Part shown: positions 49-62,739 of the stretch, piece after piece
Position numbering within the stretch: the first letter of the stretch is position 1
How the letters are laid out: each line of letters starts with the position of its first letter
Source of the DNA: a virus
Reading direction: 5' to 3' (one strand)
IMG/VR virus record: IMGVR_UViG_3300045999_010033
Location: 1 to 64,000 of that record
Length of the DNA: 64,000 nt
Notes under the pieces: generated by a model
Databases searched by the model: none
Seen by the model: only the letters and a program-made list of their open reading frames with translations
What the model was told of the DNA's origin: nothing
Translations under genes and position numbers: made by a program

Positions 49-513
49 CTATTGTTTTCTAAACAAACCCTCTAAAGATGAAACCTTATTTCCGTTATTA
101 TCATTTAACTGCCTTTCGTAATACAATTGTTTGAGAGTTTGTAAATCTCGCGAGTTTTGATTAACAAGCCTATTATTTTGATAAGTTGCGTTTTGTAAAA
201 TATCAATTTTCTGATTTAATAGTCTTATAGAATCAAGTGTAGAGCCCGTAAAATTATATTGATTTTCTATAATGACATCAACCTTTTCATGCAAAAGGTT
301 TTGTCCAGTTTTTACACTATCTATTTTTTGGTCAATCGTAGAAACATTTGTTCTTATTGTACTTACATCAGTAAGCCCTTTTACGAAATTAGGAAATAGC
401 AGGTAAACCATTCCCAAAGTGATAAGTAATGTTGTAGTATATAGGATAATGGTATCCATAAACTCCTTCTTACTCATTTTAATAAAATCAAAATTAAAAG
501 ATTTCCAATTCAT
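49..513 (-). CDS. hypothetical membrane-anchored coiled-coil protein
   Basis: ORF track; N-terminal hydrophobic segment then Q/N/L-rich region; part of the minus-strand gene tiling. Confidence 0.5.
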   Translation of the reverse strand: MNWKSFNFDFIKMSKKEFMDTIILYTTTLLITLGMVYLLFPNFVKGLTDVSTIRTNVSTIDQKIDSVKTGQNLLHEKVDVIIENQYNFTGSTLDSIRLLNQKIDILQNATYQNNRLVNQNSRDLQTLKQLYYERQLNDNNGNKVSSLEGLFRKQ

Positions 514-45995: not shown

Positions 45996-46009
45996 ATGCT
46001 CTTTTTATA

Positions 46010-46348: not shown

Positions 46349-46357
46349 TTGTGAAAT

Positions 46358-46687: not shown

Positions 46688-46703
46688 TTTTGCAATTTAT
46701 TTA

Positions 46704-46886: not shown

Positions 46887-47278
46887 TGTTTTTGTTTTAC
46901 TATTTCAATGAGTTTACGGAGACAAGCAAGTTCTGCTTCTTCTTGTCCATCAAAACTCCCAACCCAAATAGATTCATCTTTATTTTCATCTTGAATCCAT
47001 ATTTCGTACACCTTAGAAAAGGTATCAGGCATTTCAATTACTACTGATTTTCTATACCTAACAAAACTAATAAATAGCCCATAGTTCTTACGAAAGAATC
47101 TGAATGACTGTGAAAATGTTGGACTGAGAGTTATACCATCGCCTTGTCTATCAAAAGACTTTGAATAAAACTTTTTGTTTAGGAAATGTGCAAAACACGG
47201 TTCATCAAACCCAAGTTGCTTCAACTCAAACGCATCTTTGAATGGGATAAAATCTTTCATTGTTTTTGTTTTAGTCAA
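46883..47278 (-). CDS. hypothetical protein (paralog of 40162..40530)
   Basis: Paralogy. Confidence 0.5.
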   Translation of the reverse strand: MTKTKTMKDFIPFKDAFELKQLGFDEPCFAHFLNKKFYSKSFDRQGDGITLSPTFSQSFRFFRKNYGLFISFVRYRKSVVIEMPDTFSKVYEIWIQDENKDESIWVGSFDGQEEAELACLRKLIEIVKQKQ

Positions 47279-47449
47279 TTAAATTTAAAATCGCTACATA
47301 AAGAGCGTAAACGATAACACATAAAACTAAAATCACAATAATCATCATCGTTTCATACGGATATGTTTTTTCACTAATAAGCAATAACCCAAACACTAAT
47401 AATACCAAAAATGTGTAAAATGCTGCTTTAAGTTTCTTTTTCATAACTT

Positions 47450-48112: not shown

Positions 48113-48296
48113 CTTTTAATACAATGATTTCTTTTACTTTCACCGGCCAAATAGGCATCCTATCAATCGTTACCTGCATATGCCCATGTAACGGATTCAC
48201 TCCGCACGATTGGCAGATACCAGTGATTCTTTGACCGGGCCACTTTGGATGGAGTACACTAATACGTTTACCAACCAAATTCAAATCGTTTCTCAT
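48084..48296 (-). CDS. hypothetical protein
   Basis: ORF track. Confidence 0.4.
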   Translation of the reverse strand: MRNDLNLVGKRISVLHPKWPGQRITGICQSCGVNPLHGHMQVTIDRMPIWPVKVKEIIVLKDETNENKFK

Positions 48297-48306
48297 AATA
48301 ATGTGT

Positions 48307-48960
48307 TTATCGCTCTTTAAGTTCTAATGAATCTAAGCTGAAGGGGCAGTACAGCAAAGTTGGATTCTTTTTCTGAATATCAACATTAGGATACTTCTTT
48401 TTGAACTCTATAACATCAAATCTATTAGTAATAAGATGAAATCCATTTTTAGTTGGAATTTCCGCAATACATTTATATCCTTCCGGTCTTAATACGTTGA
48501 TAAATGCCCGGATATCTTCTCTAACAATTTCATCCTTTGTATCAATATCGATAATCCAACGCTTCTCATAAGTTTTCAGTTGCCCAACAACCGAATCAAA
48601 TAAGTTGTTTTGAACGAACTGACCATCTTTGAGTCTTTGTGCCAAAGCCATCATCATATCCAATGAAACATCTTTATGATTTTGTTTCTGAATATGGATG
48701 TAGGCACGTGCTTTAAACATCTCACAAAGTTGGATTATTTCATCATAACGTTTTTCCAAATATTGAATACTGGAAACGCAATATGTTTTTATTGTACGAA
48801 CCGATTGGTGATTATCCCTTTCACCTTCGGGCTGGTCCTTCTTTCTTTTGAAGATATACAACATATAAAAGTCACCCTCGTTATCGAAGTTCAGCAAAGG
48901 TTTGATTAATTCGATATTGTTTATCATACTATACGATTTTTTAGACATAGTGGGTCTCAT
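48307..48960 (-). CDS. hypothetical protein (likely start at MSKKS)
   Basis: N-terminal codons in promoter repeat copy C. Confidence 0.5.
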   Translation of the reverse strand: MRPTMSKKSYSMINNIELIKPLLNFDNEGDFYMLYIFKRKKDQPEGERDNHQSVRTIKTYCVSSIQYLEKRYDEIIQLCEMFKARAYIHIQKQNHKDVSLDMMMALAQRLKDGQFVQNNLFDSVVGQLKTYEKRWIIDIDTKDEIVREDIRAFINVLRPEGYKCIAEIPTKNGFHLITNRFDVIEFKKKYPNVDIQKKNPTLLYCPFSLDSLELKER

Positions 48961-49100
48961 TGTGTATTACTACACAAAGTTAGGGCATTCTGTGCTAATA
49001 AACAAACCTATTTGTTGAATTTTTTCTAAATTTTTGAGGACTTTGTTAGAAAAAATCTAATAGTCATTGATTATCAACGAGTTATAACTCATTGATATTC
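48945..49100 (-). promoter_or_regulatory. conserved upstream repeat copy C
   Basis: See copy A. Confidence 0.6.
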
Positions 49101-49145
49101 TATGAATTATAACGTCTATTGATAATCAATGACTTACGTGGAGAA

Positions 49146-49604
49146 TTATCCCAAATAATCGAATTTTTTGATTATCTTTTTTAAGATTGCCGAATATCCA
49201 CTTGACTGGGAATATATTTTATCTAAATAGGATAGATACTCGGTTCGATTGGATATACTACGTTTTTGTATAAAACGGTCTTGCCACATTTTGTAATCCT
49301 TAACAGAATCTTTCCAACTGAAAAATGTAGCGTATCCACGATTAGATCCAGTGGCCAACGTCTCCCTCACTTTCGGATACTTCATTCCGAATAGATTGTT
49401 ATTTAATTTGAAGACTGTAGATTTAAAATGCCCACTTTCTAAAACAGCTTGTGCAAATACTACTTCGGGATATTTAATCCCATTTGCTATCAATTCACTC
49501 CACAATAATTCATAATTAGGAGGAGTATTCCGCGAGTTGTTCGCAGCGAAGCTCGTAAACAATAAAGGTAAGACGAGCAAACAAACAGTGATGATTTTTT
49601 TCAT
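49146..49604 (-). CDS. mannosyl-glycoprotein endo-beta-N-acetylglucosaminidase-like peptidoglycan hydrolase (candidate endolysin)
   Basis: Signal peptide; 'FAQAVLESGHFKS...NNLFGMK' glucosaminidase (FlgJ-type) signature. Confidence 0.6.
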   Translation of the reverse strand: MKKIITVCLLVLPLLFTSFAANNSRNTPPNYELLWSELIANGIKYPEVVFAQAVLESGHFKSTVFKLNNNLFGMKYPKVRETLATGSNRGYATFFSWKDSVKDYKMWQDRFIQKRSISNRTEYLSYLDKIYSQSSGYSAILKKIIKKFDYLG

Positions 49605-49656
49605 GCGCTTTTTGTTTTGATTAAAAATATGCCATCATTGTGACATTTATATTGAG

Positions 49657-49731
49657 TTGGGTGTGCCAGATTCGAACTGGCGATTTCTTGCTCCCAAAGC
49701 AAGCGCGATAACCGGACTACGCTAACACCCA
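49657..49731 (-). tRNA. tRNA-Pro(TGG)
   Basis: AC stem CTTGC/GCAAG loop TTTGGGA; T-arm GCCAG-TTCGAAT-CTGGC. Confidence 0.7.
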
Positions 49732-49780
49732 GTGTTTAAGTATTAAATATAAGTATTTTTTTGGATTAAACCAAAACTGA

Positions 49781-50515
49781 TTACCATTGTTTTTGAGATG
49801 TAACCAGGAATTGGTGAGCCGGTTGACCCGTGTTGGGGCTAACCCACGATAACCAAGATCCAGTTATTTGTTGAGGAGCCGGGCCTATTACTGATTTATA
49901 TGGAATACGTGCAATCAACGGCCCTTTAATTGTCAAACTACCCGTTGACCAAATGTATAATACAGAATTAGCAGGTAGTATATCTATTGGTGCTTTCCTT
50001 ATTAGGAATACACGCGTATCAGTTCCGGCAGTTGGGAAGCGGTTCATCTGTCCAATTCTTTCACCAACTGCGGTAGAGGCGGTTGCATTAGATGCCGTTG
50101 TATAATATAATGCGTAACTTTGTGTTACTGCACTTCTGGCTACAAGCGAATATCCAATAATATAATTGCCTTGTGGTATTACCGATGCTGTCATAGCAAA
50201 CGCAAATGGTGCACCCCAACTCGTACTACCAGTAGTAGGACCGGTTATTTGTGCATCGGTGTGACCATACTTCACCATACCATTCAATGCCGAAAATACT
50301 GCATTATACGATGCCGAGTTCACTTGAACAAAATCACCAACACTTGCCGAATCATAACTTGCGGTATTTGCCGACGAAAGTGCTGCACGAATTGCATCAG
50401 ATACTACCGATTGTGTTGCAGCCGCCCCTACGTTCATCACCATTCTGCCGATTCCGCTTTGATTATTCATTGATAATCCGCCGCCGGCTCCAGTATTTGA
50501 AAACTTTATGGGCAT
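49781..50515 (-). CDS. Gly/Ala/Ser/Thr-rich protein (possible structural/fibre-like)
   Basis: 244 aa, low complexity. Confidence 0.45.
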   Translation of the reverse strand: MPIKFSNTGAGGGLSMNNQSGIGRMVMNVGAAATQSVVSDAIRAALSSANTASYDSASVGDFVQVNSASYNAVFSALNGMVKYGHTDAQITGPTTGSTSWGAPFAFAMTASVIPQGNYIIGYSLVARSAVTQSYALYYTTASNATASTAVGERIGQMNRFPTAGTDTRVFLIRKAPIDILPANSVLYIWSTGSLTIKGPLIARIPYKSVIGPAPQQITGSWLSWVSPNTGQPAHQFLVTSQKQW

Positions 50516-50560
50516 CTCTTTTCCTTTATAATAGGTATAATGGAATTGAGAAAAAATGGT

Positions 50561-50633
50561 AGTCCCATCGTGATTCGAACACGAAACCTACGCTTTAGAA
50601 GAGCGTCGCTCTAATCCTGTTGAGCTATGGGAC
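50561..50633 (-). tRNA. tRNA-Arg(TCT)
   Basis: AC stem ACGCT/AGCGT loop CTTCTAA. Confidence 0.7.
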
Positions 50634-50653
50634 CATAAAAGATAATTATCTTT

Positions 50654-50727
50654 TGGCGGTTCGTAGGGGTTACGCTCCCCTGCCTTCGCAGTGACAGTGC
50701 GATATTCTACTATTATACTAACGAACC
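50654..50727 (-). tRNA. tRNA-Asp(GTC) with non-canonical T-loop (AGCGTAA) and encoded CCA
   Basis: Acceptor GGTTCGT/ACGAACC perfect, AC stem TCGCA/TGCGA loop CTGTCAC. Confidence 0.6.
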
Positions 50728-50734
50728 AAAACTG

Positions 50735-50817
50735 AGCCGAGAGCCGGATTCGAACCGGCGTGTCCTTGCGGATCCTGATTACAAGTCAGGTGCAATCGGC
50801 CACTATGCGACCTCGGC
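50735..50817 (-). tRNA. class-II (long V-arm, Tyr-like body) tRNA with anticodon TGT
   Basis: Perfect AC stem CCTGA/TCAGG, loop CTTGTAA; D-arm GCA-TAGTGGCCGAT-TGC nearly identical to tRNA-Tyr at 55439. Confidence 0.6.
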
Positions 50818-51027
50818 TTATATTATCTTACAATACTATATACAACCGTCAACATCCAACCATCTCCATTGCTGTTGGTATGTACTGATTCAATCTTTAT
50901 TGTGTTTGGTCCAAATTCTGCAACCCATGCATCAAATTGCCGATTCAATTCATCACCAGCAAAGGTGCCGCGTTTTCCACTTGTAAATACTTTAATCATA
51001 TACTTTTATTTTTATTTTCTGCGTCAG

Positions 51028-51152
51028 GGTGGGGAATCGAACCCCACACTCTCATACCAGGAGCTATGCCTAGAGTTACATCACGTATAGTGTTTTCACA
51101 CATCCCCTATATTATGCGACGGCCTTAACGTTTACCCATTACGTCACCTGAC
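51028..51152 (-). ncRNA. 125-nt tRNA-like gene with internal insertion
   Basis: 5' GTCAGGT-GA-CGT-AATGGGTAA-ACG (acceptor + D-arm) and 3' TGGGG-TTCGATT-CCCCA-CCCTGAC separated by about 50 extra nt. Confidence 0.4.
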
Positions 51153-51343
51153 TACCACTTCTATTTAATTTTGAATAGCCTATCGAAGAATCGTTTTAGA
51201 GTCGGTTTTAGTTTTCGATTTCTTTTTAGCTCTTCTTGATACGCTATTACTTCCAATACCTCATCAAACCTAATTGGAGTTCCTCTACGGACATCATCGG
51301 ATAACTTTTCTAATCTTTCGTTTTTCATTTTTTTATTGTTCAG

Positions 51344-51439
51344 TAGTCAGGACACGAATCGAATCTGTATTTAGGATTGTTTAATCGGGCTTCATACCGT
51401 ACCTACCTTTCGGTGCGTCTACCGTTCCGCCACCTGACT
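51344..51439 (-). pseudogene. degenerate copy of the AGTCAGG class-II tRNA-like element
   Basis: Acceptor AGTCAGG/CCTGACT and D-arm intact, T-stem and AC arm disrupted. Confidence 0.4.
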
Positions 51440-51446
51440 ATTTTAT

Positions 51447-51701
51447 TTATATCCACTTAATACGATTTTCTGTGTCCATCCATTGTTGGAATTGATTTTT
51501 GTTAACCAAACACGTTCTCTTTTCTTCACCAAACATATTATTCATTGTAATTGATGTATCAGGGACAGAAATCAAACACTCAACAATCAAATGATCCCCT
51601 ATCTCACCATGTTCATCATCATAATCTTTTTCTTTCCATCCTAAAATTTCCAAAACGTATTTATTATCTATTCTAATGAATTTTAAAAGACTTTTTTCCA
51701 T
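51447..51701 (-). CDS. hypothetical protein
   Basis: ORF track. Confidence 0.45.
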   Translation of the reverse strand: MEKSLLKFIRIDNKYVLEILGWKEKDYDDEHGEIGDHLIVECLISVPDTSITMNNMFGEEKRTCLVNKNQFQQWMDTENRIKWI

Positions 51702-51702
51702 G

Positions 51703-52011
51703 TTATTTAGTTTTTGCGATTTCTACATTCAAAGCATTATTGAGCAATGAATACAATTTTGATGTAAAATCTCTCGAAAAGATTGACATCCAATTCATCT
51801 CTGTTTCCAACTCCTCAATAGATTCACGAATACTATCTTGATATCCTTTATGGTTAGTCACAATCCACAATGCAAGATTATTAATTCTTACTTTAAGTGA
51901 CTCGGATAAACATCCGTTATTTTGCATCATACAAAAAACTTGGTCTGCCCATTCATTACCACCAGTATCAAACAACTTGTTTTTGTCAGTGTATTTTTTC
52001 ATAATAATCAA
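51703..52011 (-). CDS. hypothetical protein
   Basis: ORF track. Confidence 0.45.
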   Translation of the reverse strand: MIIMKKYTDKNKLFDTGGNEWADQVFCMMQNNGCLSESLKVRINNLALWIVTNHKGYQDSIRESIEELETEMNWMSIFSRDFTSKLYSLLNNALNVEIAKTK

Positions 52012-52018
52012 TTTTTAG

Positions 52019-52096
52019 TAGTCAGGACAGGATTCGAACCTGCATGGTCACTCCTTTGTGTACACCGCGAGCTGCGTTACCATTCGCCACCTGACT
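52019..52096 (-). tRNA. AGTCAGG class-II tRNA-like element (no canonical anticodon stem found)
   Basis: Acceptor AGTCAGG/CCTGACT, D-arm GCG-AATGGTAA-CGC, T-arm GCAGG-TTCGAAT-CCTGT. Confidence 0.45.
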
Positions 52097-52240
52097 AACC
52101 ATAGGAAAGAAGAAGATGGTCGCGTGGACAACTTCTTTTACGATTGGCGTTACTTAGGTGAATACCTCCCAACTCCGATTATATCAGCCGGTATTCACTC
52201 TCGTGCTGTTGATATAATCATTCCCCAATCAACCTATTTG

Positions 52241-52313
52241 TACTCCCGACCGGAATCGAACCGGCATCTTCAGATCGAAAATCTGACGAACTCAACCATT
52301 ATTCGACGGGAGC
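52241..52313 (-). tRNA. tRNA-Glu(TTC)
   Basis: AC stem TCAGA/TCTGA loop TTTTCGA. Confidence 0.65.
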
Positions 52314-52362
52314 AATTGTTATACAATGATAAGGAATTTATTTGTATATTCCAAATCTATGT

Positions 52363-52438
52363 GGGTAACTAATGGGGTACGATCCCATAATCTTCTGCTT
52401 CACAAACAGACGCTTTATTCCATTTAAGCGATAGCTAC
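52363..52438 (-). tRNA. tRNA-His(GTG) with extra 5' G(-1)
   Basis: AC stem TCTGT/GCAGA loop TTGTGAA; T-loop ATCGTAC. Confidence 0.7.
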
Positions 52439-52447
52439 CATATAAAG

Positions 52448-52519
52448 AGGCGGGAGTAGGAATCGAACCTACCTAAGAGGGGTTGCAGTCCTCCACCTGA
52501 GCCACTCGGCCATCCCGCC
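52448..52519 (-). tRNA. tRNA-Cys(GCA)
   Basis: Acceptor GGCGGGA/TCCCGCC; AC loop CTGCAAC. Confidence 0.65.
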
Positions 52520-52525
52520 AGCCTA

Positions 52526-53086
52526 TTACCTATCCATTATGATTTTAGCAAAATTCGTATCAACCTTCACTCTCTCTATCAATTGCTGCGATGTCATATT
52601 TTTAGCTTCTTCCAATATCTTGTCCTTTTGGCTTGCTATACCCAAATCCACCTGTGCTTCCTTTGCCATTGATTTCAATTCAGTAACTACAAAGGTAGAA
52701 AGTTCATGCGGTATTTGTTTAGCCGCCGAATCCGTAGTAAGGAATTGCATCGTACCACCGCCGGCTATGATTAGTAATGTTTCTTTCTTTGTAGGAGTAA
52801 ACATATAACCCGCCCAAGTAATCAAAGATAAAACCAAAGTAACATAAAATATACTTGAGATGTATCGTTTTAACATTTTTGCCGAACGAACCTCAGGATG
52901 TGTTTTTTCTTCTTCTTCGGTTTTACAATTACCATCAGAAATTTGACTCATTAAATGCATCGCCGCACCTATCATCGCAATAAATGCAAAAATAGCCATC
53001 CACGTAAAAATATCACTTGCTACATCGAAGAAAGTCCTAACAGAATCTGCACGAGTTACCCAATAAAAAATAGAATACCAATTCAT
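52526..53086 (-). CDS. integral membrane protein
   Basis: Three predicted TM helices. Confidence 0.5.
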   Translation of the reverse strand: MNWYSIFYWVTRADSVRTFFDVASDIFTWMAIFAFIAMIGAAMHLMSQISDGNCKTEEEEKTHPEVRSAKMLKRYISSIFYVTLVLSLITWAGYMFTPTKKETLLIIAGGGTMQFLTTDSAAKQIPHELSTFVVTELKSMAKEAQVDLGIASQKDKILEEAKNMTSQQLIERVKVDTNFAKIIMDR

Positions 53087-53105
53087 AACATTTGATTTTA
53101 AAAAA

Positions 53106-53348
53106 TTAAACTAATTTATTTGCGATTTTCAAAATTGTTTCCTCATCTTCTTTTGTTAGTTTCCACGCATTTCCAATGAGTTTGCTTACTTGCGCATCAA
53201 ATTCACTAACGGATACATCATCCGGATGAACTCCACCCATTTGCTTTGGAACATATCCATCTTCATACAATGCGTCTGCTAACTCTTGCTTTTCATATCG
53301 GGCTAAACCGAAAATAAGGTCATCAACATCAATTTCAATACTTGCCAT
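53106..53348 (-). CDS. hypothetical protein
   Basis: ORF track. Confidence 0.45.
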   Translation of the reverse strand: MASIEIDVDDLIFGLARYEKQELADALYEDGYVPKQMGGVHPDDVSVSEFDAQVSKLIGNAWKLTKEDEETILKIANKLV

Positions 53349-53358
53349 AACTTTTATT

Positions 53359-53880
53359 TTATTTATTTAGTTTACTAATACACTCATCAACTTTGTCACG
53401 CAACCTACCACCATTTCCGTGGTCACCATTCACCTGAACGTGTCTCCATTGTGGAACACGCATCCATTTGAATTGGCCGGCGAGATTCAAATCATCAATG
53501 GCAATCCAATTTTTCACTCCGTTATCCTTTACCCATTTACGAATTTCTGCCGCACGTTCCCATTCGATTGGTGGACGGCTCATTTTCTTCCATAGGTCTT
53601 GATGTGTGGTGATATCAATCAACAAGTGACCAGGTATTCCAAAGTGTTCAAATACTCGTTTCATTTGGATAAAACTGAAATGCTTTCTCCAATCCGAGCT
53701 CAATACAAGTCGTGCATCAGTCTCACGAAGAACTTTGTGTAGAGCCTGGCAATCTTCCTCTACCCATCTGTATGGGATTTTGAACAATTGTGAACCGGCG
53801 TGCAGTTCAACACGGCCCGTTCCCCATGTTCCCCATGCCAATGGGCCATCAACATCAATGAATATGATTTTATTGTTCAT
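53359..53880 (-). CDS. HAD-family phosphatase (T4 Pnk 3'-phosphatase-domain-like)
   Basis: 'IIFIDVDGPLA' DxDG(T/P) motif I at N-terminus. Confidence 0.55.
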   Translation of the reverse strand: MNNKIIFIDVDGPLAWGTWGTGRVELHAGSQLFKIPYRWVEEDCQALHKVLRETDARLVLSSDWRKHFSFIQMKRVFEHFGIPGHLLIDITTHQDLWKKMSRPPIEWERAAEIRKWVKDNGVKNWIAIDDLNLAGQFKWMRVPQWRHVQVNGDHGNGGRLRDKVDECISKLNK

Positions 53881-54559
53881 CTTTTTTAGTTTTTAATCTC
53901 AAGTCACCAAACTTACTATTGGCGAGCAAGTCATCGTAATCTTTGTATCCTTGCTCTCTCGCCCATTCATCGCTTTTCTTTTGGCGATACTCTTTTACTT
54001 TCTCCGGGTCTTTCATTTGCTCAACACTCTCAAACCCTAAATCACGTGCACATTCCGATTCGCACCATCCATGTGAACCGATTTCTATATTGATTGGAAG
54101 GTCGGTTTCCAATGATTCGATGAAATTTTCAAATTGATTTGCAGCTACAAATGGCATTGAGTAACTACCTTCGGAAACAGCGTATCCGCTTTCATCTTCA
54201 CTATCGAATATCTCAATCCTACCCATACGATACCTTTCACCGAATAATGAAAATACACCATAGCCAACGGTAGAGTAACTGAACCGACCCGGATGACTTA
54301 CCCCTTCGTTATCAATACAACCGGGGTTCACTTCCATCCAATTGGCCAATTCATTAATCAATTCTTCATCGGATAATTCTGGCGATTTACGCCTGATGTT
54401 TTTGAGAAACCATCCTAACTTACTTCTATCCACTTTCATAACAATTCGTTTTAATGTAGCCTCTGAGCGAATCGAACGCCCACCAATTGATCCGTAGTCA
54501 ATCATTCTATCCGTTAAACTAAAAGGCCGGTTAGCACGGGTTGTAAGAATCGAACTCAC
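53870..54559 (-). CDS. hypothetical protein
   Basis: ORF track; N-terminus may overlap tRNA-Arg by a few nt. Confidence 0.45.
   Translation of the reverse strand: MSSILTTRANRPFSLTDRMIDYGSIGGRSIRSEATLKRIVMKVDRSKLGWFLKNIRRKSPELSDEELINELANWMEVNPGCIDNEGVSHPGRFSYSTVGYGVFSLFGERYRMGRIEIFDSEDESGYAVSEGSYSMPFVAANQFENFIESLETDLPINIEIGSHGWCESECARDLGFESVEQMKDPEKVKEYRQKKSDEWAREQGYKDYDDLLANSKFGDLRLKTKKDEQ
54457..54528 (-). tRNA. tRNA-Arg(ACG)
   Basis: AC stem ATTGA/TCAAT loop CTACGGA; G-U-rich acceptor. Confidence 0.65.
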
Positions 54560-54603
54560 TCCTAGGGATTTGGAGTCCCATTGGCTACCATAGCCTAACC
54601 CGT
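54535..54603 (-). tRNA. tRNA-Trp(CCA) (short D-arm)
   Basis: Acceptor ACGGGTT/AACCCGT; AC loop CTCCAAA. Confidence 0.6.
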
Positions 54604-54608
54604 GTATG

Positions 54609-54682
54609 TGTTTGGAGTGAGACTCGAACTCACATCCTCTTCGGTATCAGCGAAGTGCTCCAACCAATTGAGCTATCCAAAC
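54609..54682 (-). tRNA. tRNA-Ile(GAT)
   Basis: Acceptor GTTTGGA/TCCAAAC; AC stem CTTCG/CGAAG loop CTGATAC. Confidence 0.75.
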
Positions 54683-54686
54683 ATTG

Positions 54687-54760
54687 TGACCCCGCTGCGA
54701 CTCGAACGCAGGACTCCTAAATTAAAAGTTTAGTGCTCTAACCAACTGAGCTACGAGGTC
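54687..54760 (-). tRNA. tRNA-Lys(TTT)
   Basis: AC stem CTAAA/TTTAG loop CTTTTAA. Confidence 0.75.
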
Positions 54761-54766
54761 AACTAT

Positions 54767-55291
54767 TCATTCTATATCAGAATTAGAATTGTACTGAAAC
54801 GTTATAAACGTATGTTCCAAGTACATATCATGTTCTATCTTTATATTTTCCGGAGAGATATCATAAGAACACATATCACAATTCCACAATGCTTCCCACA
54901 ATCCGGCTTTGAATTGGGCCTCATCGTTGTATTTGGTCAAACCCAATATACATCCCAACGTCGGCGGTAAATACTTTCTTTCCAATTCTTTACAATGTTC
55001 TCTATACGCTTTCCAATTCTCCGGATTTTCCATATCACTCGTCCATGCATCATGCAGTTTTTTATTCATATCCGTATCCTCTTCGCTTACCTGAATCAGG
55101 TTATTAGAGTGTAGGTATTCGGTGGACAGTGTAGGCAAATTGTTTGTTACAATGTATTCACCTACATACATTCCGAGCATATAATCAACACTAACGGAAT
55201 CAAACCACTTTTGAGTTTGGGCGATTTGCTCTTCCCTATATTCGGGCGTCTTCACTCTACGAAACAATTCATCCAATGATATTTTACGCAT
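54767..55291 (-). CDS. hypothetical protein
   Basis: ORF track. Confidence 0.5.
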   Translation of the reverse strand: MRKISLDELFRRVKTPEYREEQIAQTQKWFDSVSVDYMLGMYVGEYIVTNNLPTLSTEYLHSNNLIQVSEEDTDMNKKLHDAWTSDMENPENWKAYREHCKELERKYLPPTLGCILGLTKYNDEAQFKAGLWEALWNCDMCSYDISPENIKIEHDMYLEHTFITFQYNSNSDIE

Positions 55292-55308
55292 ATTATTATT
55301 TTTTAGTG

Positions 55309-55383
55309 GTGGAGCCTCAGGGAATCGAACCCCATCCTCCCGCTCTTCAGGCGGGCGTACGCACCAGCTATACGAAAGCTCCT
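55309..55383 (-). tRNA. tRNA-Phe(GAA) with encoded CCA
   Basis: AC stem CCCGC/GCGGG loop CTGAAGA. Confidence 0.7.
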
Positions 55384-55438
55384 GGCGGCCGCCTCTTACT
55401 ATTTCATAAGATATTTACTCAGGCATTTGGCCATGTTG

Positions 55439-55520
55439 TTGGGGTAGACGGACTCGAACCGCCGGACTCCGAAGAGAGAGCATTTACAGTGCCCCGCAAT
55501 TGCCGCTATGCGATACCCCA
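55439..55520 (-). tRNA. tRNA-Tyr(GTA)
   Basis: Class II; AC loop CTGTAAA; V-arm CTC-TTCG-GAG. Confidence 0.7.
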
Positions 55521-55526
55521 TTGTAG

Positions 55527-55598
55527 TAGAAGGTGGGAATTACGATATCCCGACCTCTTGGATGTAAACCAAGTGCTCTGCCTCTGAGCTAACCTTCT
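55527..55598 (-). tRNA. tRNA-Val(TAC)
   Basis: AC stem CTTGG/CCAAG loop TTTACAT. Confidence 0.7.
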
Positions 55599-55628
55599 CC
55601 GTTTTCCATATGTCAAAGAACATACCTG

Positions 55629-55700
55629 CGCTGATGGAGAATTACGATATCCCGACCTGAGTCTTAACAGGACCCTGCTCTACCTCTGAGCTACATCAGC
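55629..55700 (-). tRNA. tRNA-Asn(GTT)
   Basis: Acceptor GCTGATG/CATCAGC; AC loop CTGTTAA. Confidence 0.7.
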
Positions 55701-55717
55701 AAATGACAATAACGAAA

Positions 55718-55752
55718 ATACCCCCGAAACAATCAGGGGTATTTTACGCTAT
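55718..55752 (-). terminator. stem-loop (ATACCCC...GGGGTAT, 7 bp) followed by T-run on minus strand
   Basis: Seen in sequence between tRNA at 55915 and tRNA cluster. Confidence 0.35.
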
Positions 55753-55914
55753 CACAGTCTACTTATATGTTCACTATGCCCCTGCTATACATTTGTATCG
55801 AACACGCAGACTCCTTCCCACTTAATGATGGGATACGTGCGATTGATATGTTTATTAAACAGGTTCATAATTGTTTTGTTATAAGTATAAAGTATTTTCA
55901 AAAAAAGTTACCAG

Positions 55915-55985
55915 AGCGAAGCCAGAGAGTCGAACTCCATCCTGCGACCTGGAGGGCCGCCGTGCTACCGTTACACTAACTCCAC
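55915..55985 (-). tRNA. tRNA with anticodon TCC (Gly-like; loop CCTCCAG, C33)
   Basis: D-arm GTG-TAACGGTAG-CAC; G-U-rich acceptor. Confidence 0.5.
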
Positions 55986-55989
55986 TTAT

Positions 55990-57060
55990 AAAGGTGAGAT
56001 TACCCTTTGTTGAGAACAGCCTTTAGAAAGATTATTAGTTCCTCTCTTATCCACCACCTTTTGAGCGGTATCCGTTCAGTGTCGGTTAGTAATGCTAACC
56101 ACTCATTAAGTTACTGACTACTCTCTTATTACTCCCCTTCTTCTACCCTGCCGAGCAGATTCACACTTGCGGTGTTAGAAGCTTTTCGTAAGAATCACAG
56201 ACCTCTTGCGGAGGTATCGTGGCTGGGAACAACTCCCAACTATGTAGACACCTTTCATCCGTAACTGATGGGCACTTATGCTTCATTTTGATTTTATAGT
56301 TTTGCTACCAAATGCAAGTATAAAGTTGGTTTGTAGATTGATTCAGGTAGTGGCCCATCTGCCAGCTCCCTCACCTTTTGAGTGAGGAAATACTAAACTA
56401 CCCGATGTGATATCCCTATCACCATATTTTAAGTCTGCTTCATAACTCATGCTTTGGTAAGCGAAGGTTAAGGGCAACAACGACACCACTCGTACTTTAC
56501 CATACCTTTCGGTTTTAAGTGAACTCTAATATTGGATAACGAAATGATACGAAGGGATTAAGTTCGTACTTCTCACATATACCCTATGGGTTATTCCTAT
56601 TATCCTTCCGGATTCAAATGAACTATCTACTTAGCCCATTCACCCAGACACCTCACCTACAGCCTTGCCGTCAGTTACTAAGTCCGAGTGGTATCCCACT
56701 TGCCTACTCAACCTCTTTTGGGAGGCGCATCGGTGCTTAACCAAACACCAACACTTTATCCTACTTTCGTAGTTTATTTAACGACCATAGGCGGCCGATT
56801 TGTACTATGTAACGCGAGGTTACTATGTACTCATTTCGTAATGTAAAAGAACTTTAATGTGAACCAAACTTACGCCCTATTAAGGATACTCCGTTTATAC
56901 TACTTTCACATCTGAATCGGTAGTGCGATTTTACTAAAGATAAGTAAAGTTTTTCAAATTACCAAATCTTTATTCGTTGAACATTTTCGGTTATGTTTAT
57001 TTACACCATATAATACTTCCTACTTCTGAACAAGTTTATAAAGTTAAGTAAAGTTTTTCA
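55990..57060. ncRNA. about 1.07-kb ORF-free region flanked by tRNAs; candidate large structured ncRNA
   Basis: No ORF of 60 aa or more in any frame of ORF track; internal short repeats (CACCTTTTGAG, AAGTAAAGTTTTTCAA). Confidence 0.35.
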
Positions 57061-57079
57061 ACTTTCCAAATCTTTATAG

Positions 57080-57151
57080 TTGCGGGGGGTGGAATCGAAC
57101 CACCGTAGGCGAGGCTTATGAGACCTGCGGATAACCAACAATCTCCCCACA
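57080..57151 (-). tRNA. tRNA-Met(CAT) (or Ile-lysidine) copy 1
   Basis: AC loop CTCATAA with 4-bp stem; T-arm GGTGG-TTCGATT-CCACC. Confidence 0.55.
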
Positions 57152-57186
57152 ATGTATAAATATATATAAAGAACTATTTTTTTAGA

Positions 57187-57256
57187 TGCCCTTTTAGGAT
57201 TCGAACCTAAACTAACAGAATCAAAATCTGTTGTGCTAACCGTTACACTAAAGAGC
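57187..57256 (-). tRNA. tRNA-Gln(TTG)
   Basis: AC stem ACAGA/TCTGT loop TTTTGAT. Confidence 0.65.
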
Positions 57257-57359
57257 AATTTTCAAATCTCATTTTCGTTTGATAACTCAAAGTTAAGGAA
57301 AATTTTCCAATCTACCAAATTTTTTTGTTATCCATTGAAAATCAACGAATTGATTATAA

Positions 57360-57450
57360 TAACACATCCATCTCTTATTGACTACCATAAACACATTCTG
57401 TATGGTTTACCACATCTATAATCTATGACACATAGGAGATGGATGTGTTA
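57360..57450. repeat. 15-bp perfect inverted repeat TAACACATCCATCTC / GAGATGGATGTGTTA with about 60-nt spacer
   Basis: Seen in sequence. Confidence 0.7.
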
Positions 57451-57583
57451 AAATTTGCTCGTCTATTCCGAGCCGCCAATCAGTATCGAGTAACTAATAC
57501 GTAGCATACCACTACACTATCTGTCGAGGGAGGTGATTCCCCACAGACCTTGTGGCTTCTTTATCACCCATACCACAATAGTG

Positions 57584-57657
57584 TGGACTCTCACGGGCTC
57601 GAACCGTGGACCTAATGATTATGAGTCATTTGCTCTAACCAACTGAGCTAAGAGTCC
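57584..57657 (-). tRNA. tRNA-Met(CAT) copy 2
   Basis: Acceptor GGACTCT/AGAGTCC; D-arm AGCTCAGTTGGTTAGAGC; AC stem AATGA/TCATT loop CTCATAA. Confidence 0.75.
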
Positions 57658-57659
57658 AA

Positions 57660-57810
57660 AGTGGACGTGGTGGGAGTCGAACCCACGTCTTGATAAGAAA
57701 TCCTACCACCAACGTATCACAAGTTTATTCCTACATTCGGGTTGGACACCTATCTAACATTCTCACACCGTGTTAGCCGACGGTGATAGTGGTTCGATTC
57801 GGCCACTATG
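57660..57810 (-). pseudogene. tRNA-like remnants (T-arm GTGGG-TTCGACT-CCCAC at 3' side; class-II D-arm-like GCATAGTGGCCGAAT at 5' side)
   Basis: Fragments resemble the class-II tRNAs elsewhere but no consistent acceptor pairing. Confidence 0.3.
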
Positions 57811-58132
57811 CCACATAGAGAATCACATTCTATTTTAATCCCACGATGTGTGCGGGAGCGGTTACGCAGCTACTGCGTACTCAGCGTTGGCGTATGTGTT
57901 GCCAGTTATTCTTCGATACAATATTAAGGGATAGTATCATTTCCCTACTTGTGATGGTAACACTCACATACCAATCAATTACCAATACACGCCCATATTT
58001 ATAAGAACTATATATCTCCCATTTTTGGTCGATAACCAAAGTTACTACTTTTTTTTGGATTTACCAAACATTTCGGAAAATATTTTTTAAATCGTTGAAA
58101 ATCAACCGATTACGTATTAAAAAAAGAAATAT

Positions 58133-58873
58133 CTATCGGTTTTTCCTCAAAATTAGGGCCGTTTCCATCCACTTTTTTCCTATCGGATTGACCACCGGGG
58201 CATCAACAAATCGGCGAACGACTCGTTTTACATCTGAATCCGGATTAGAAGACTCTGAGTTTTCAACAATATACAATCGGTTTCCAAATATCGTGCGATA
58301 TTCACCCAATGCAGACTGGCATTTATTCCATAACCCTTCAACAAGCTCGTTTGATATGGAACGTTCCCGCTCACTATTACGTTTCAATGCAACTTCTAAT
58401 GTAGTATTAACGAACACCATTGCCGCATCATAACCGGCGGCTTCCATTTCAGATTTACGGCCGGCAATGTAAGCCGGATTGGCACCGGTACTATCCATTA
58501 TCATTCCCAGTCGCCCTTCCATATACATCTTACGTGTCGCAGATACCATACGAAATGCCTTTTGTCGTATACCGGAGCCAGTTTTATCTCGGCCGGTATC
58601 TATTACTGATGAATAAAACTCCGGGTCTTCATCTCGTATCTTACCCAACTCCTTTGGATTGATACCATTTTTTTGTAGAAACGCCTCAAAAGCATGATCC
58701 GAATTTATTACCTTCAATCCCATGCCGGTAAGGCTTGAACGCTTCGGCAATCCAAATATCTGGTCTATGATATACGATTTACCCGAACCGGGTCCACCTG
58801 CAGTAAACACACATTTGAGTACACCACGATTGAATACTCCTTCGTTTAATAAGGGTTTTAATAGGATAGCCAT
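58133..58873 (-). CDS. P-loop nucleoside/nucleotide kinase-like protein
   Basis: 'FTAGGPGSGKSY' Walker A; 246 aa. Confidence 0.5.
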   Translation of the reverse strand: MAILLKPLLNEGVFNRGVLKCVFTAGGPGSGKSYIIDQIFGLPKRSSLTGMGLKVINSDHAFEAFLQKNGINPKELGKIRDEDPEFYSSVIDTGRDKTGSGIRQKAFRMVSATRKMYMEGRLGMIMDSTGANPAYIAGRKSEMEAAGYDAAMVFVNTTLEVALKRNSERERSISNELVEGLWNKCQSALGEYRTIFGNRLYIVENSESSNPDSDVKRVVRRFVDAPVVNPIGKKWMETALILRKNR

Positions 58874-59094: not shown

Positions 59095-59733
59095 CTATTC
59101 ATTCTCTGTAACTTGGTAATTAAAGCGGTCATCATCAGACAGACGCCATTTCGCCGTATCTTCCACAGTCCATACATGGGTGTTTATACTACGTTTGGCG
59201 GCACTTCCATATGGTTTTGTCGTAAAAAATGGAGTGAAAACCCGACAACGATTGTTCGGTTGTATCGCATAGTTACCGGAATCCAATTCAATAATGTGCC
59301 CGCATTTATGTTGGTCGGGCGTTTCGCTAAATCCATAATCGCCCGCATTGGGGTCCGCGGCTGCCCAATCAAGTGTCATTAGGTATCTCCCCCATTCCCA
59401 TTCCCCATCCCTACGACGGTATCCCATACGGCTTCCTGCCAATAGGGTGAACACCGTAACTGCCGGGTGGTATGAGAATGAATCCCAAAGCACCAGCTCA
59501 TGCAATGGGGATTGTGGGGTGTCAGGACGGCTCGCAAACGCGTGTATGGGCATCCTCCACCATAGACCTTCATCTTCCATCATGAAGTGAAATAGTGGGA
59601 CACGACCGGGTATGGATGCCATTCCAAAGACCACACACGGTAGAAGTTCGTGAGGACCATCGGGCCGGTTATCCAAAAACCCACTTCGAATCCAACATTG
59701 AATGGGCGGAATGTTTATATTAAGATATGCCAT
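59095..59733 (-). CDS. hypothetical protein
   Basis: ORF track; slightly GC-richer. Confidence 0.5.
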   Translation of the reverse strand: MAYLNINIPPIQCWIRSGFLDNRPDGPHELLPCVVFGMASIPGRVPLFHFMMEDEGLWWRMPIHAFASRPDTPQSPLHELVLWDSFSYHPAVTVFTLLAGSRMGYRRRDGEWEWGRYLMTLDWAAADPNAGDYGFSETPDQHKCGHIIELDSGNYAIQPNNRCRVFTPFFTTKPYGSAAKRSINTHVWTVEDTAKWRLSDDDRFNYQVTENE

Positions 59734-60146: not shown

Positions 60147-60404
60147 TTAATGATGTTTTTTAATTTTAAGGAGTGTTGTCAAAATTTCTTGTAATTCTTT
60201 TTCTTCAATCGAATCTAATGCGTTTCCGAGTTTACTTCCTTTTGCTAACCAAGCATATGGTTCATATTGTTCACCATCTAAATCGAAATGATATTGAAGT
60301 ATTAAATGCCATTTATCTACATCATAGTAGAATGCATCGTTATCCCGATTTGCGAACCTTTGCATCCACGCTTGTATTGCGTTTACCAGTTGTTGTTTTT
60401 GCAT
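60147..60404 (-). CDS. hypothetical protein
   Basis: ORF track. Confidence 0.4.
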   Translation of the reverse strand: MQKQQLVNAIQAWMQRFANRDNDAFYYDVDKWHLILQYHFDLDGEQYEPYAWLAKGSKLGNALDSIEEKELQEILTTLLKIKKHH

Positions 60405-60609
60405 CTTTTTTATGTGTTTTTACTCTTACCGATTTTAATGATTTACCTTCTTTCCATTCTTTTATGATATGTGGTTTCCAATTTGTTTCAACTGATATTG
60501 GGCCATTTGGAAATTTTATCAAATCATATTTCCAAATCTGCTGACAATCATCATCTGAATAAATTACTTCCCATTTGGAAGGTTGCTTGATTTGTTTCTC
60601 CGTGCTCAT
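60340..60609 (-). CDS. hypothetical protein
   Basis: ORF track; overlaps neighbour. Confidence 0.35.
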   Translation of the reverse strand: MSTEKQIKQPSKWEVIYSDDDCQQIWKYDLIKFPNGPISVETNWKPHIIKEWKEGKSLKSVRVKTHKKDAKTTTGKRNTSVDAKVRKSG

Positions 60610-61408
60610 GATTAGGTGATGGTAATTCTATTTTATCTAATATACTTAAATTATCTGCCGCAGATTGCCTCCACTTTAACGCTACCCATATCAATATTAT
60701 TATGGTTGCCGAAACTACTCCTGCTACAACTCCCTTTTTAAGGGTATTTTTCCAAGAAAATGATTCTTCAGTATCTGAATTTTCCCAATGTAAAATTGTT
60801 TCTTGTTTTTGCTCTTCGTGGTTAGCCCTTTGCTCAATTTCATCAAGTTTTTTAACAATACGTTCAAGTATTTCAGTACTCTTATCTATCGATTCTTTTG
60901 TGGATTGTCCACTTTGGAATTTCGGCTCTTCTTTTTTTATTTCAGAACGAACATCCATATTTTTTAGGGTATCATTTTCTTGCGTTGCTTTTAGCATTGC
61001 TTTATTCATAAGTGGAGTAAAGTAGACATCATCGCTATAAACTCCACATATGGCTTCGTAGATGGTTTCGGGCATGTCTCCCTTTGTTAGGTATGAATTC
61101 GCTCCCAACGCAAGCATTTTTGAAATCATCGATGCGTTATTGTGCATTGAAACGATTACTATTTTAATATCAGGATACTCTTGTTTTAATTTTGGTAGAG
61201 TTTCTATACCATCCATTATGGGCATGTTAATATCCAATAGGATAACATTGGGTGTCATATGTTTTAGTAAATGCATAAGTTGCACACCATCTCCTGCTTC
61301 TCCTATCACATCTATATTTTGATAGAACGATAATGTTGATTTTATACCCTGTCTAAATAATACATGGTCATCACATATAATAACCTTAATTTTTGATGCC
61401 GATTCCAT
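60551..61408 (-). CDS. response-regulator receiver (CheY-like REC) domain protein with C-terminal coiled coil and transmembrane helix
   Basis: 'KVIICDDHVLFRQGI...ILLDINMPIMDG...IVIVSMHNN' receiver signature (DD, phospho-acceptor D, K); C-terminal 'VVAGVVSATIIILIWVALKW' TM segment; no HTH output. Confidence 0.6.
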   Translation of the reverse strand: MESASKIKVIICDDHVLFRQGIKSTLSFYQNIDVIGEAGDGVQLMHLLKHMTPNVILLDINMPIMDGIETLPKLKQEYPDIKIVIVSMHNNASMISKMLALGANSYLTKGDMPETIYEAICGVYSDDVYFTPLMNKAMLKATQENDTLKNMDVRSEIKKEEPKFQSGQSTKESIDKSTEILERIVKKLDEIEQRANHEEQKQETILHWENSDTEESFSWKNTLKKGVVAGVVSATIIILIWVALKWRQSAADNLSILDKIELPSPNHEHGETNQATFQMGSNLFR

Positions 61409-61440: not shown

Positions 61441-61800
61441 TTAATTGGAATTTCCAAATTTTCTTATTGGAGCACGGTTATCTCCGGGAATTTGCTTTGG
61501 ATTAGATTCTTTTGGTTGATATATTTTGCGTGGTCCATCTGAATAATTTGGTCGGTTTGGTTGTACCGGAACTACGATGACGGGTGATCTATTCCAATAC
61601 CAGCTATTATTCCAATTCGGATATGGTTGGTTGTAATAGTAATTCGATAGTGTATTCCATCTACGATTTTTGTATATCGGTGATGAATAATATACATCAT
61701 CGGGAAAAGTATATTGACCACATCCTATGAGTCCGATTAAGATAATAAATAATATAATTTTTTTCATCTTACCTTTACATATAAATATTTCGGAATCCAA
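61441..61800 (-). CDS. predicted lipoprotein
   Basis: 'MKKIILFIILIGLIGC' signal peptide plus lipobox; Tyr/Asn/Pro-rich. Confidence 0.5.
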   Translation of the reverse strand: MDSEIFICKGKMKKIILFIILIGLIGCGQYTFPDDVYYSSPIYKNRRWNTLSNYYYNQPYPNWNNSWYWNRSPVIVVPVQPNRPNYSDGPRKIYQPKESNPKQIPGDNRAPIRKFGNSN

Positions 61801-62169: not shown

Positions 62170-62739
62170 CTATTTTATAATTTCATCAATGATACCAAGT
62201 TTCAAAGCTTCATCTGAACTAATAAACCAGTCCTTTTTATCTTTGTAGTTTTTATCCAACATTTCTCTTGTCATCTTTGTGTATTCCAATGTATGCTCCT
62301 CAATCATTGATTGTAGCCTCTTTGCTTCCTCCACATCTTCTTCTATATCTTTCAACTTTCCCCATACGGCGCTGCTTACTTGATGATACATATGGGTTGC
62401 TTTTTCATATGAATAACGTCTATGTCCAGTTATTGCTATCATAAATCCGCAACTCATAGCTGCACCGGTTACGACCGTATGTACTGGAACTTTTGATTTA
62501 TCCATAACACTTAATAGTCCAAAGCACTGATATACTGCACCGCCATATGAATCTATATAAAGCATAATCGGTTTGGGTTTGTAAGTCATACCATATAATT
62601 CTGCTAACTTAGCCAAGTCAGCATCTTCATCATTAATATCAATAATTGCCTTTGTGATTTCGTTAATCGAATCTTGGTCTACTTGTTTGGCCAAGTATAA
62701 GTTTCTTTCTTTTGGGATTGGTAATTGTGGTAATGCCAT
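62170..62739 (-). CDS. clpP: ClpP-family serine protease
   Basis: 'GAAMSCGFMI' Ser motif and 'MYHQ' His region of ClpP fold; 189 aa. Confidence 0.65.
   Translation of the reverse strand: MALPQLPIPKERNLYLAKQVDQDSINEITKAIIDINDEDADLAKLAELYGMTYKPKPIMLYIDSYGGAVYQCFGLLSVMDKSKVPVHTVVTGAAMSCGFMIAITGHRRYSYEKATHMYHQVSSAVWGKLKDIEEDVEEAKRLQSMIEEHTLEYTKMTREMLDKNYKDKKDWFISSDEALKLGIIDEIIK

Follow-up and report, generated by a model that had tools for sequence, protein, structure and literature searches.

A predicted membrane-anchored NarL/FixJ-class receiver without a DNA-binding domain in a large Bacteroidota phage

Architecture of the receiver protein

The IMG/VR virus record IMGVR_UViG_3300045999_010033 was analysed over its positions 1 to 64,000, a stretch of 64 kb called the window below. 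Close to its end lies a gene for a 285-residue protein that joins an N-terminal response-regulator receiver (REC) domain to a C-terminal transmembrane (TM) helix, and that we call REC-TM. Its strand (minus) was taken from the list of open reading frames (ORFs), the initial annotation having given none. At least 15 metagenomic contigs, of up to 221 kb, encode the identical protein sequence (P0001), which bears the automatic Joint Genome Institute (JGI) name 'DNA-binding NarL/FixJ family response regulator'. From the N- to the C-terminus, the protein consists of the receiver, preceded by only 6 residues, a linker helix α6, a charged linker, an amphipathic helix, one TM helix and a tail of about 40 residues, the C-terminus lying 40 residues beyond the TM helix. 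The general plan put forward initially, a receiver without DNA-binding output followed by a helical region and a single C-terminal TM helix, had been read correctly. The gene and its parts are located as follows.

60551..61408, minus strand: REC-linker-TM gene, 285 residues, ATG start, stop codon at 60551-60553 (ORF list)
61031..61390, minus strand: receiver domain, residues 7-126 (Pfam, NarL alignment, AlphaFold2, Foldseek, family conservation)
61367-61372, minus strand: receiver residues D13 and D14 (NarL alignment)
61232-61234, minus strand: predicted phospho-acceptor D59 of the receiver (NarL alignment)
61148-61150, minus strand: receiver residue S87 (NarL alignment)
61082-61084, minus strand: receiver residue K109 (NarL alignment)
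60959..61021, minus strand: NarL-type linker helix α6, residues 130-150 (reach of the NCBIfam alignments, AlphaFold2, conservation)
60893..60958, minus strand: variable, charged, disordered linker, residues 151-172 (AlphaFold2, orthologue alignment)
60806..60892, minus strand: amphipathic helix, residues 173-201, core ILERIVxKLDEIE (AlphaFold2, conservation, heptads read from the sequence)
60677..60733, minus strand: core of the TM helix, residues 226-244 (GVVAGVVSATIIILIWVAL), flanked by KK and KWR (hydropathy, AlphaFold2, position in the family)
60554..60676, minus strand: C-terminal tail, residues 245-285, with the motifs KIE..(Y)E.G..F.M...F(G)R kept in the subfamily (alignment)

The Pfam profile Response_reg (PF00072) matches residues 9-120 over profile positions 1-110 of 111, with E = 8.4e-27 and 94 bits against a cut-off of 30.2, and is the only Pfam domain reported at E ≤ 1 besides a RIFIN match discussed below. 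The best NCBIfam models are NarL, MctR, UvrY and NarP. Their scores are all far below the equivalog cut-offs, and their alignments run to residue 145-162 or so, through the NarL-type linker helix. The initial annotation had placed all receiver hallmarks within the N-terminal 120 residues or so, and each key residue is indeed in place in a phmmer alignment with Escherichia coli NarL (PDB 1A04): D13/D14, D59, S87 and K109 fall on the acid pocket, the phospho-acceptor, the Ser/Thr and the Lys of NarL, and the phospho-acceptor motif LLDINMP aligns with LLDLNMP. D14, D59 and K109 are invariant among 29 family members, while D alternates with E at position 13 and S with T at position 87. An AlphaFold2 model calculated from the alignment of these 29 sequences shows a (βα)5 fold over residues 7-126, with a predicted local distance difference test (pLDDT) score of 94-98. 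Its best Foldseek matches in the PDB are the receivers of RcsB, VraR, LiaR, DesR and NarL, with a root mean square deviation of 1.3-2.1 Å. Sequence and model thus describe an intact receiver that can probably be phosphorylated. Pseudo-receivers typically lose some of the catalytic residues; that D13, D14, D59, S/T87 and K109 are conserved throughout a deep viral clade speaks for genuine phosphochemistry and against a pseudo-receiver.

Beyond the receiver, α6 is modelled as two helices (132-144 and 146-150, pLDDT 70-89). The linker that follows (residues 151-172) has pLDDT values below 50 at residues 154-170, and its orthologues show 32% identity with 36% gaps. The acidic character first ascribed to this part of the protein was recovered: residues 161-222 contain 15 D/E against 9 K/R, for a net charge of −6. 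Its description as a coiled coil holds in part. What we found is a single cytoplasmic helix of 29 residues (173-201, pLDDT 60-76) with about three heptads and hydrophobic residues at the a/d positions (I174, L181, I184, L188, I191), the heptad spacing having been read from the sequence rather than with a coiled-coil predictor; this helix is present only in the long subfamily of relatives defined below.

The single C-terminal TM helix stands. The mean Kyte-Doolittle hydropathy over 19 residues is 2.57 at residues 226-244, a value that none of 2000 shuffled sequences reached; the segment is embedded in a modelled helix (219-258) with pLDDT 87-95, and it occupies the same position in all family members aligned. 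As the receiver must be cytoplasmic and no signal peptide is present, we infer an N-in/C-out topology that places the tail outside the cytoplasm. Within the long subfamily, mean pairwise identity is highest in α6 (80%), followed by the receiver (75%), the helix 173-201 (54%, its core ILERIVxKLDEIE being near-invariant), the TM helix (38%) and the tail (32%, with its motifs retained).

The absence of a DNA-binding output domain, proposed at the outset, was borne out. The Pfam scan of the 285-residue protein gave no match to PF00196 (GerE/LuxR helix-turn-helix) at E ≤ 1, and hhalign of the tail against a host GerE domain returned a probability of 0.1%. The tail has no counterpart among the Pfam, NCBIfam and PHROG families; matches to Pfam RIFIN (E = 0.003, under threshold) and to phrog_1103 (E = 8e-4) were rejected as noise from the TM and charged regions. 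Searched against an index of 5.8 billion proteins, the tail profile retrieved three proteins, all of them from the REC-TM family, and a full-length search of 1.84 billion representatives covered the tail only in P0007 and P0013. We also considered that the tail might be a degenerate GerE domain. A conserved DKSxEILERIVKKL stretch aligns without offset to the recognition helix of GerE (DLSPRTVEAIRDKL), LERIVKKL facing VEAIRDKL, and a phmmer alignment extends onto LiaR; neither correspondence is significant, and hhalign against the host REC-GerE protein and against GerE alone gave a probability of 0.1% with P = 0.5, so that this candidate was rejected. As the search for GerE was negative, the protein is not a transcription factor of the NarL family, despite its JGI name.

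REC-TM is best compared with the NarL/FixJ regulators that are its closest sequence and fold matches (E. coli NarL, Staphylococcus aureus VraR, Enterococcus faecium LiaR, Bacillus subtilis DesR and Salmonella RcsB). It shares with them the acid pocket, the register of D59, S87 and K109, and α6. In contrast to these proteins it is phage-encoded and has no GerE/LuxR helix-turn-helix, whose usual place is taken by the charged linker, the conserved amphipathic helix, the TM helix and the 40-residue peptide. It is predicted to be a tail-anchored protein of the inner membrane, encoded by a large Bacteroidota phage and carrying a complete cytoplasmic receiver of the NarL/FixJ class.

A viral family and its relatives in Chitinophagaceae

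REC-TM has at least about 40 metagenomic relatives of 210-300 residues that share the REC-linker-TM plan. The full-length orthologues (P0001-P0013, 255-300 residues) constitute a long subfamily. A larger short subfamily, of about 210-237 residues, displays the NarL-type receiver, α6, a charged linker, the C-terminal TM helix and a short conserved tail. IMG/VR viral contigs with lengths of 45-79 kb (L014-L016) yielded more divergent members, as did the cluster representatives (P0123, P0125, P0127, P0129). Every family context examined is viral or phage-like, with small, unannotated genes densely packed on contigs that measure 13-251 kb, the 251-kb contig being an IMG/VR viral genome. Most of these contigs carry typical phage accessory genes, for instance ThyA, GIY-YIG nucleases, endolysin-type PG_binding_1 proteins or cREC-Metallophos pairs. 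No family member was detected in 50,697 GenBank phage records, where the best match had 72% coverage at 28% identity, nor in 185,579 species-representative bacterial genomes, where the best matches to signature peptides reached at most 45% identity and concerned the receiver only.

In a neighbour-joining tree of the receiver region, all viral members group in one clade (bootstrap 80/100), within which the long subfamily is supported by 99/100. Two residues mark the viral lineage: Cys12 and an Asn two positions after the phospho-acceptor (D+2, N61) are each found in 29 of 29 viral members, while Cys12 is present in 2 of the 35 nearest bacterial proteins and Asn at D+2 in none of the 35. The window protein has both residues together with α6, the charged linker, the single TM helix, the tail and a contig of viral type. 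It belongs to a family that is old and so far known from viral or phage-like contigs alone, and is not a recent orphan capture.

Two protein families of Chitinophagaceae are about equally near to the phage proteins, with 50-55% mean identity over the receiver. The first consists of REC-GerE regulators, which comprise the closest cellular receivers (54-60% identity); that of Agriterribacter humi (P0038) is 58% identical to the phage receiver over 124 residues. Helix α1, which docks the kinase, is nearly the same in both (DDHVLFRAGVKTALS vs DDHVLFRQGIKSTLS). More generally, α1 is 63-65% identical between phage and host groups, above the value for the whole receiver, and H15, F18, R19 and G21 are common to all of these groups. 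In contrast to the phage proteins, the REC-GerE regulators are soluble and DNA-binding, have a Gln at D+2, where all viral members have Asn, and a Thr at position 87, and form a separate clade. The P0038 gene is an orphan beside a second regulator gene; the nearest kinase, of the HisKA_3 class, is paired with a less similar regulator (38% identity).

The second family combines a GYF_2-like domain, a disordered spacer, a receiver, α6, a basic stretch, one TM helix and a C-terminal region. It includes P0122, P0126, P0132 and P0280 (the last from Puia sp.) and the loci L041-L044, with proteins of 480-625 residues encoded on the chromosomes of Puia and, as metagenome-assembled genomes, other Chitinophagaceae, on contigs of up to 2.3 Mb. 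The region after the TM helix (about 250 residues) contains some 100 disordered residues and then a confidently folded β-sandwich of about 100 residues, presumably outside the cytoplasm, for which no PDB sequence match and no NCBIfam or Pfam match was obtained. No kinase gene is adjacent and nothing beyond the receiver is annotated in these genes; we found no published description of such proteins. Their receivers are of the same subtype as that of the phage (50-53% identity for P0122, P0280 and P0132), with S87 as in REC-TM, and are followed in the same order by α6, a spacer of about 70 residues and the single TM helix. In a profile-profile alignment, this family and the short phage subfamily run colinearly, with no gaps, from the receiver up to where the TM helix begins. 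The phage proteins thus look like the minimal core of a host membrane-spanning response regulator, or like the same layout reached after loss of GerE. The window protein itself is not a member of this host family, whose N-terminal GYF-like domain, long post-TM region and chromosomal location set it apart: its hhalign match is confined to residues 3-142, and it contains neither GYF_2 nor the β-sandwich. Neighbour joining gave no firm branch order among the phage clade, the REC-GerE regulators and the GYF-REC-TM family, so that descent may have proceeded either by truncation of a GYF-REC-TM type or by loss of GerE.

Neighbouring genes and phage setting

Two small genes flank REC-TM in the window, and the homologue of a third, linked to REC-TM in relatives, is located at the opposite end.

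61441..61767, minus strand: Tyr/Pro-rich lipoprotein of 108 residues with lipobox LIGC and the sequence FPDDVYY ... PIRKFGNSN, upstream of REC-TM
60340..60609, minus strand: basic soluble protein of 89 residues, whose start overlaps the end of the REC-TM gene by 59 nt
49..513, minus strand: bitopic protein of 154 residues with an N-terminal TM helix and a coiled coil (phmmer E = 1.9e-4 to the REC-TM partner in L014)

The lipoprotein gene lies next to or near REC-TM in six of the ten family loci compared. L005 and L009 have a homologue directly before REC-TM, L016 has one at a distance of 470 nt on the upstream side, and in L001 and L047 this upstream distance is 1.4-1.9 kb; a homologue was not detected in L002, L014, L045 and L046. 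The gene of the 89-residue protein overlaps the 3' end of REC-TM at all long-subfamily loci (L005, L009-L012, L045), and homologues are located 2-3 kb downstream in the short-subfamily loci L002 and L046. In all six short or variant loci (L001, L002, L014, L016, L046, L047), which are spread across the deepest split of the family, the gene for the bitopic coiled-coil protein has its start at the REC-TM stop codon or inside it; the homologue in the window is separated from REC-TM by 60 kb and from the lipoprotein gene by 61 kb. The lipoprotein, the 89-residue protein and the bitopic protein gave no significant family match. A spanin or holin identity of these neighbours was considered and is not favoured: the only PHROG matches, to holin (E = 0.006) and to Rz-like spanin (E = 0.04), come from the L014 partner, one protein of four, and are not significant, and the genes are unlinked in the window. 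The lone lysis-related match of REC-TM itself is to an endolysin PHROG at E = 0.28. Genes of PG_binding_1 or endolysin-like proteins lie 1-5 kb from REC-TM in L001, L002 and L016; no endolysin was seen within 10 kb of it in the window.

In L001 (8795-9956) and L047 (4790-5956), genes of a heme oxygenase and a ferredoxin-dependent bilin reductase stand directly upstream of REC-TM; L005:48-677 was noted together with these loci. The window contains a heme oxygenase gene at 38211-38729 (minus strand, Pfam 39 bits). It is 21 kb away from REC-TM, and the search for a bilin reductase in the window was negative, so that a bilin link there was rejected. Pairs of cREC_REC (PF20274) and Metallophos genes occur 2-3 kb from REC-TM in L002 (13259-14253) and L046 (8320-9322). 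In close relatives, outer-membrane proteins resembling SusC/TonB-dependent receptors are encoded a few kb upstream of REC-TM (L009:1-2530 and the contig of P0008); one combines CarboxypepD_reg with an OMP barrel and exceeds 1087 residues, the other, of 751 residues, combines Plug with OMP_b-brl_3 and stands beside a β-helix protein. A scan for promoters and terminators around the gene gave counts at the level of shuffled sequence, with a sigma-70 model that does not cover the promoters of Bacteroidota.

Further features of the window are listed below.

58133-58873, minus strand: zeta-toxin/AAA_33-like kinase-fold protein
59095-59733, minus strand: protein matching phrog_3704
62170-62739, minus strand: ClpP-like protease
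27105-29524, 29919-31145, 41042-42154, 44527-45594 and 34372-37863, minus strand: accessory genes of large phages, including the NAD salvage pair NAMPT/PRPP synthetase, RNA and DNA ligases and a CobS/CobT-like AAA pair
42828-57994, minus strand: tRNA array with 23 standard tRNAs and a tmRNA
57659-57994, minus strand: tmRNA, tag GNTYANAEYAVAA, Rfam 68 bits
55991-56405, minus strand: GOLLD RNA (Rfam RF02032), matched over its full length (model positions 1-416 of 416) with 296.6 bits, the gathering score being 150

The window is unmistakably that of a large phage, as the description of the gene as phage-encoded had implied. All long ORFs are on one strand. The window encodes 24 tRNAs and a tmRNA, two RNA ligases (RnlA-like and Rnl2-like) and an ATP-dependent DNA ligase, all of T4 type, as well as NAMPT with PRPP synthetase, CobS/CobT-like proteins, ThyA and ClpP. 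Besides the 23 standard tRNAs, one more at 55629-55700 is matched by Rfam and was missed by ARAGORN, and an odd 94-nt 'tRNA-???' at 12283-12376 (minus strand) has an unassignable anticodon. The GOLLD RNA lies inside the tRNA array, directly 5' of a tRNA-Gly gene, and the approximately 780 nt upstream of it (56406-57185) contain no ORF of at least 100 residues. The neighbour matching phrog_3704 has 212 residues, the PHROG label 'ferredoxin' and no Pfam match. The ClpP region shares 66% DNA identity with a 462-kb uncultured huge phage (LR756500.1).

Possible roles of a tethered receiver in host signalling and phage envelope functions

Our preferred reading, held tentatively, is that REC-TM acts as a membrane-tethered phospho-acceptor that diverts the signal of a host kinase. 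After infection, the protein would insert into the inner membrane beside membrane-bound histidine kinases, expected to be of the HisKA_3 class, which is the one expected to pair with NarL-type receivers. D59 would take phosphoryl groups from a host kinase that normally serves related host regulators. Having no output of its own, the protein would drain or divert the signal as a phosphate sink, and might in addition form dead heterodimers with host regulators in a dominant-negative manner, so that a transcriptional or envelope response of the host would be blunted during infection. The tether would raise the local concentration of the receiver at the kinase and mimic the REC-linker-TM core of the host membrane-spanning receiver.

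Hijacking or titration of a host phosphorelay, as suggested in the initial annotation, is compatible with the data since no kinase was seen in the window, the receiver is 50-60% identical to NarL-class receivers of Chitinophagaceae and α1 is better conserved than the rest. The window covers 64 kb of a genome of roughly 221 kb (about 29%), 157 kb lying outside. Within it, a phmmer search with one host HisKA_3 kinase, a weak test, gave a best E of 0.39, Pfam or PHROG profile scans of the ORFs of at least 212 residues revealed no kinase domain, and no second receiver was found. Precomputed Pfam annotation likewise showed no kinase in the flanking 6-10 kb at the ten loci examined.

Receivers that lack enzymatic and DNA-binding outputs are known from cells. 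Single-domain receivers serve as phosphate sinks, as does CheY1 of Sinorhizobium meliloti, or as protein-binding switches, as do CheY and DivK. A further single-domain regulator is presented as a protein-binding switch in PMC12802240. REC-TM shares with these proteins the output-less receiver and the proposed logic of a sink or partner switch, a likeness that we take as functional analogy only. They are soluble and cellular, whereas REC-TM is membrane-anchored and has about 160 extra residues.

Several points weigh against a mere diversion of host signal. The host relatives are themselves orphans with no adjacent kinase. A pure decoy needs neither conserved extracytoplasmic C-terminal motifs, nor the ILERIVxKLDEIE helix, nor an α6 conserved above the receiver. 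The recurrent linkage to the lipoprotein, the 89-residue protein and the coupled bitopic protein suggests that REC-TM has partners of its own. With only 50-60% identity to host receivers and an old clade, tight mimicry of one present-day regulator is not demonstrated. Finally, the part of the genome beyond the window leaves some slight room for a phage kinase.

Somewhat less likely, and the main rival, is that REC-TM is instead a phospho-switch with its own membrane output, controlling an envelope module of the phage. The receiver would be fed by a host or phage kinase or by acetyl phosphate, and the TM helix and tail would change oligomeric state or contacts with the lipoprotein, the 89-residue protein and/or the bitopic protein; lysis timing, superinfection exclusion or envelope remodelling would be conceivable roles. 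REC-TM and its partners would then be a split, phage-sized version of the host GYF-REC-TM-periplasmic-domain proteins, whose existence shows that a receiver can be connected in this way to a domain beyond the membrane. The bitopic gene at the REC-TM stop codon at six of six short or variant loci, across the deepest split, argues for such a switch, as do the homologous lipoprotein in the vicinity at six of ten loci and the PG_binding_1 or endolysin-like genes nearby in three. The conservation of the tail motifs, the ILERIV helix and α6 fits it better than a decoy. The host REC-linker-TM core and the company of genes for small envelope proteins make a phage-autonomous membrane output a serious rival to the pure decoy. 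The distance of the coiled-coil homologue (49-513) and the lack of a nearby endolysin in the window speak against it, however, and the holin and spanin matches of the partner are not significant. Moreover, synteny in related large phages can last without a functional link, and the extracytoplasmic tail measures just 12-40 residues.

A more specific scheme, which we judge unlikely, is a split inside-out two-component output. A host kinase would phosphorylate the tethered receiver, whose state would be passed across the envelope by the TM helix and tail, the coupled bitopic coiled-coil protein and the outer-membrane lipoprotein; the device could time lysis or block superinfection. The kinase could conceivably depend on a bilin, because heme oxygenase and bilin reductase genes adjoin REC-TM in two relatives. 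If true, this output would be the viral counterpart of the undescribed bacterial membrane-spanning response regulators of the GYF-REC-TM-periplasmic-domain type.

That REC-TM is the cognate regulator of a histidine kinase encoded by the phage itself outside the window, so that the phage would possess a complete two-component system, seems improbable to us. The small visible share of the genome leaves space for it, large viral contigs can hold kinase domains (a hybrid kinase is present on the 302-kb IMG/VR contig L040), and in L001 and L047 the genes for heme oxygenase and bilin reductase that directly precede REC-TM hint at a chromophore-dependent sensor. Genes of two-component systems are usually adjacent, however, and no kinase was seen in the flanks of the ten loci nor in the limited scans of the window.

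Still less probable is a non-phosphorylated scaffold, in which the receiver would be a protein-binding module that tethers a host protein. The model here is FrzS of Myxococcus xanthus, a pseudo-receiver protein without phospho-acceptor chemistry, whose coiled coil is very long and which lacks a TM helix. REC-TM resembles it, by functional analogy only, in its N-terminal receiver-type domain, its helical, coiled-coil-like sequence and the absence of a DNA-binding domain; the combination of receiver, helix and anchor recalls scaffold-type receivers, and the high conservation of α6 and of the helix core would suit such a role. In contrast to FrzS, REC-TM has an intact pocket, a helix of only about 29 residues and a TM anchor, and all catalytic residues, including the Mg2+-binding acidic pair and K109, are kept over the deep clade. 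A host REC-GerE regulator in decay that was acquired fortuitously, or a bacterial gene from a wrongly binned contig, is largely refuted and scarcely credible: the GerE-like register of DKSxEILERIVKKL (not significant) and the JGI name stand against 75-80% identity in receiver and α6 among orthologues, a monophyletic group on viral contigs that is absent from representative bacterial genomes, and a window of phage DNA.

In the literature searched we found nothing specific on classical receivers encoded by phages, or on membrane-anchored or tail-anchored response regulators. The only receiver-like domain that we found discussed for jumbo phages is cREC (Pfam PF20274), a divergent receiver never linked to histidine-kinase signalling and tied to NAD+/ADP-ribose systems (Iyer et al. 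2021, PMC7824862). REC-TM differs from it in being a classical PF00072 receiver with no PF20274 match at E ≤ 1, and it is flanked by genes of a lipoprotein and of small uncharacterised proteins. An early protein of Pseudomonas phage LSL4, PIT4, is described as perturbing host two-component signalling (PMC10714779). REC-TM and PIT4 have this concept in common; the abstract gives no sign of a receiver domain in PIT4, and we claim no homology.

Receiver domains are the commonest signalling switch of bacteria, and we found almost nothing on classical receivers of lytic phages. The Chitinophagaceae GYF-REC-TM family challenges the picture of response regulators as soluble cytoplasmic proteins. On the phage side, the conservation of a tethered receiver without output suggests that large Bacteroidota phages silence a host kinase pathway or listen to it, which, if true, would constitute a new type of host-takeover or host-sensing device.

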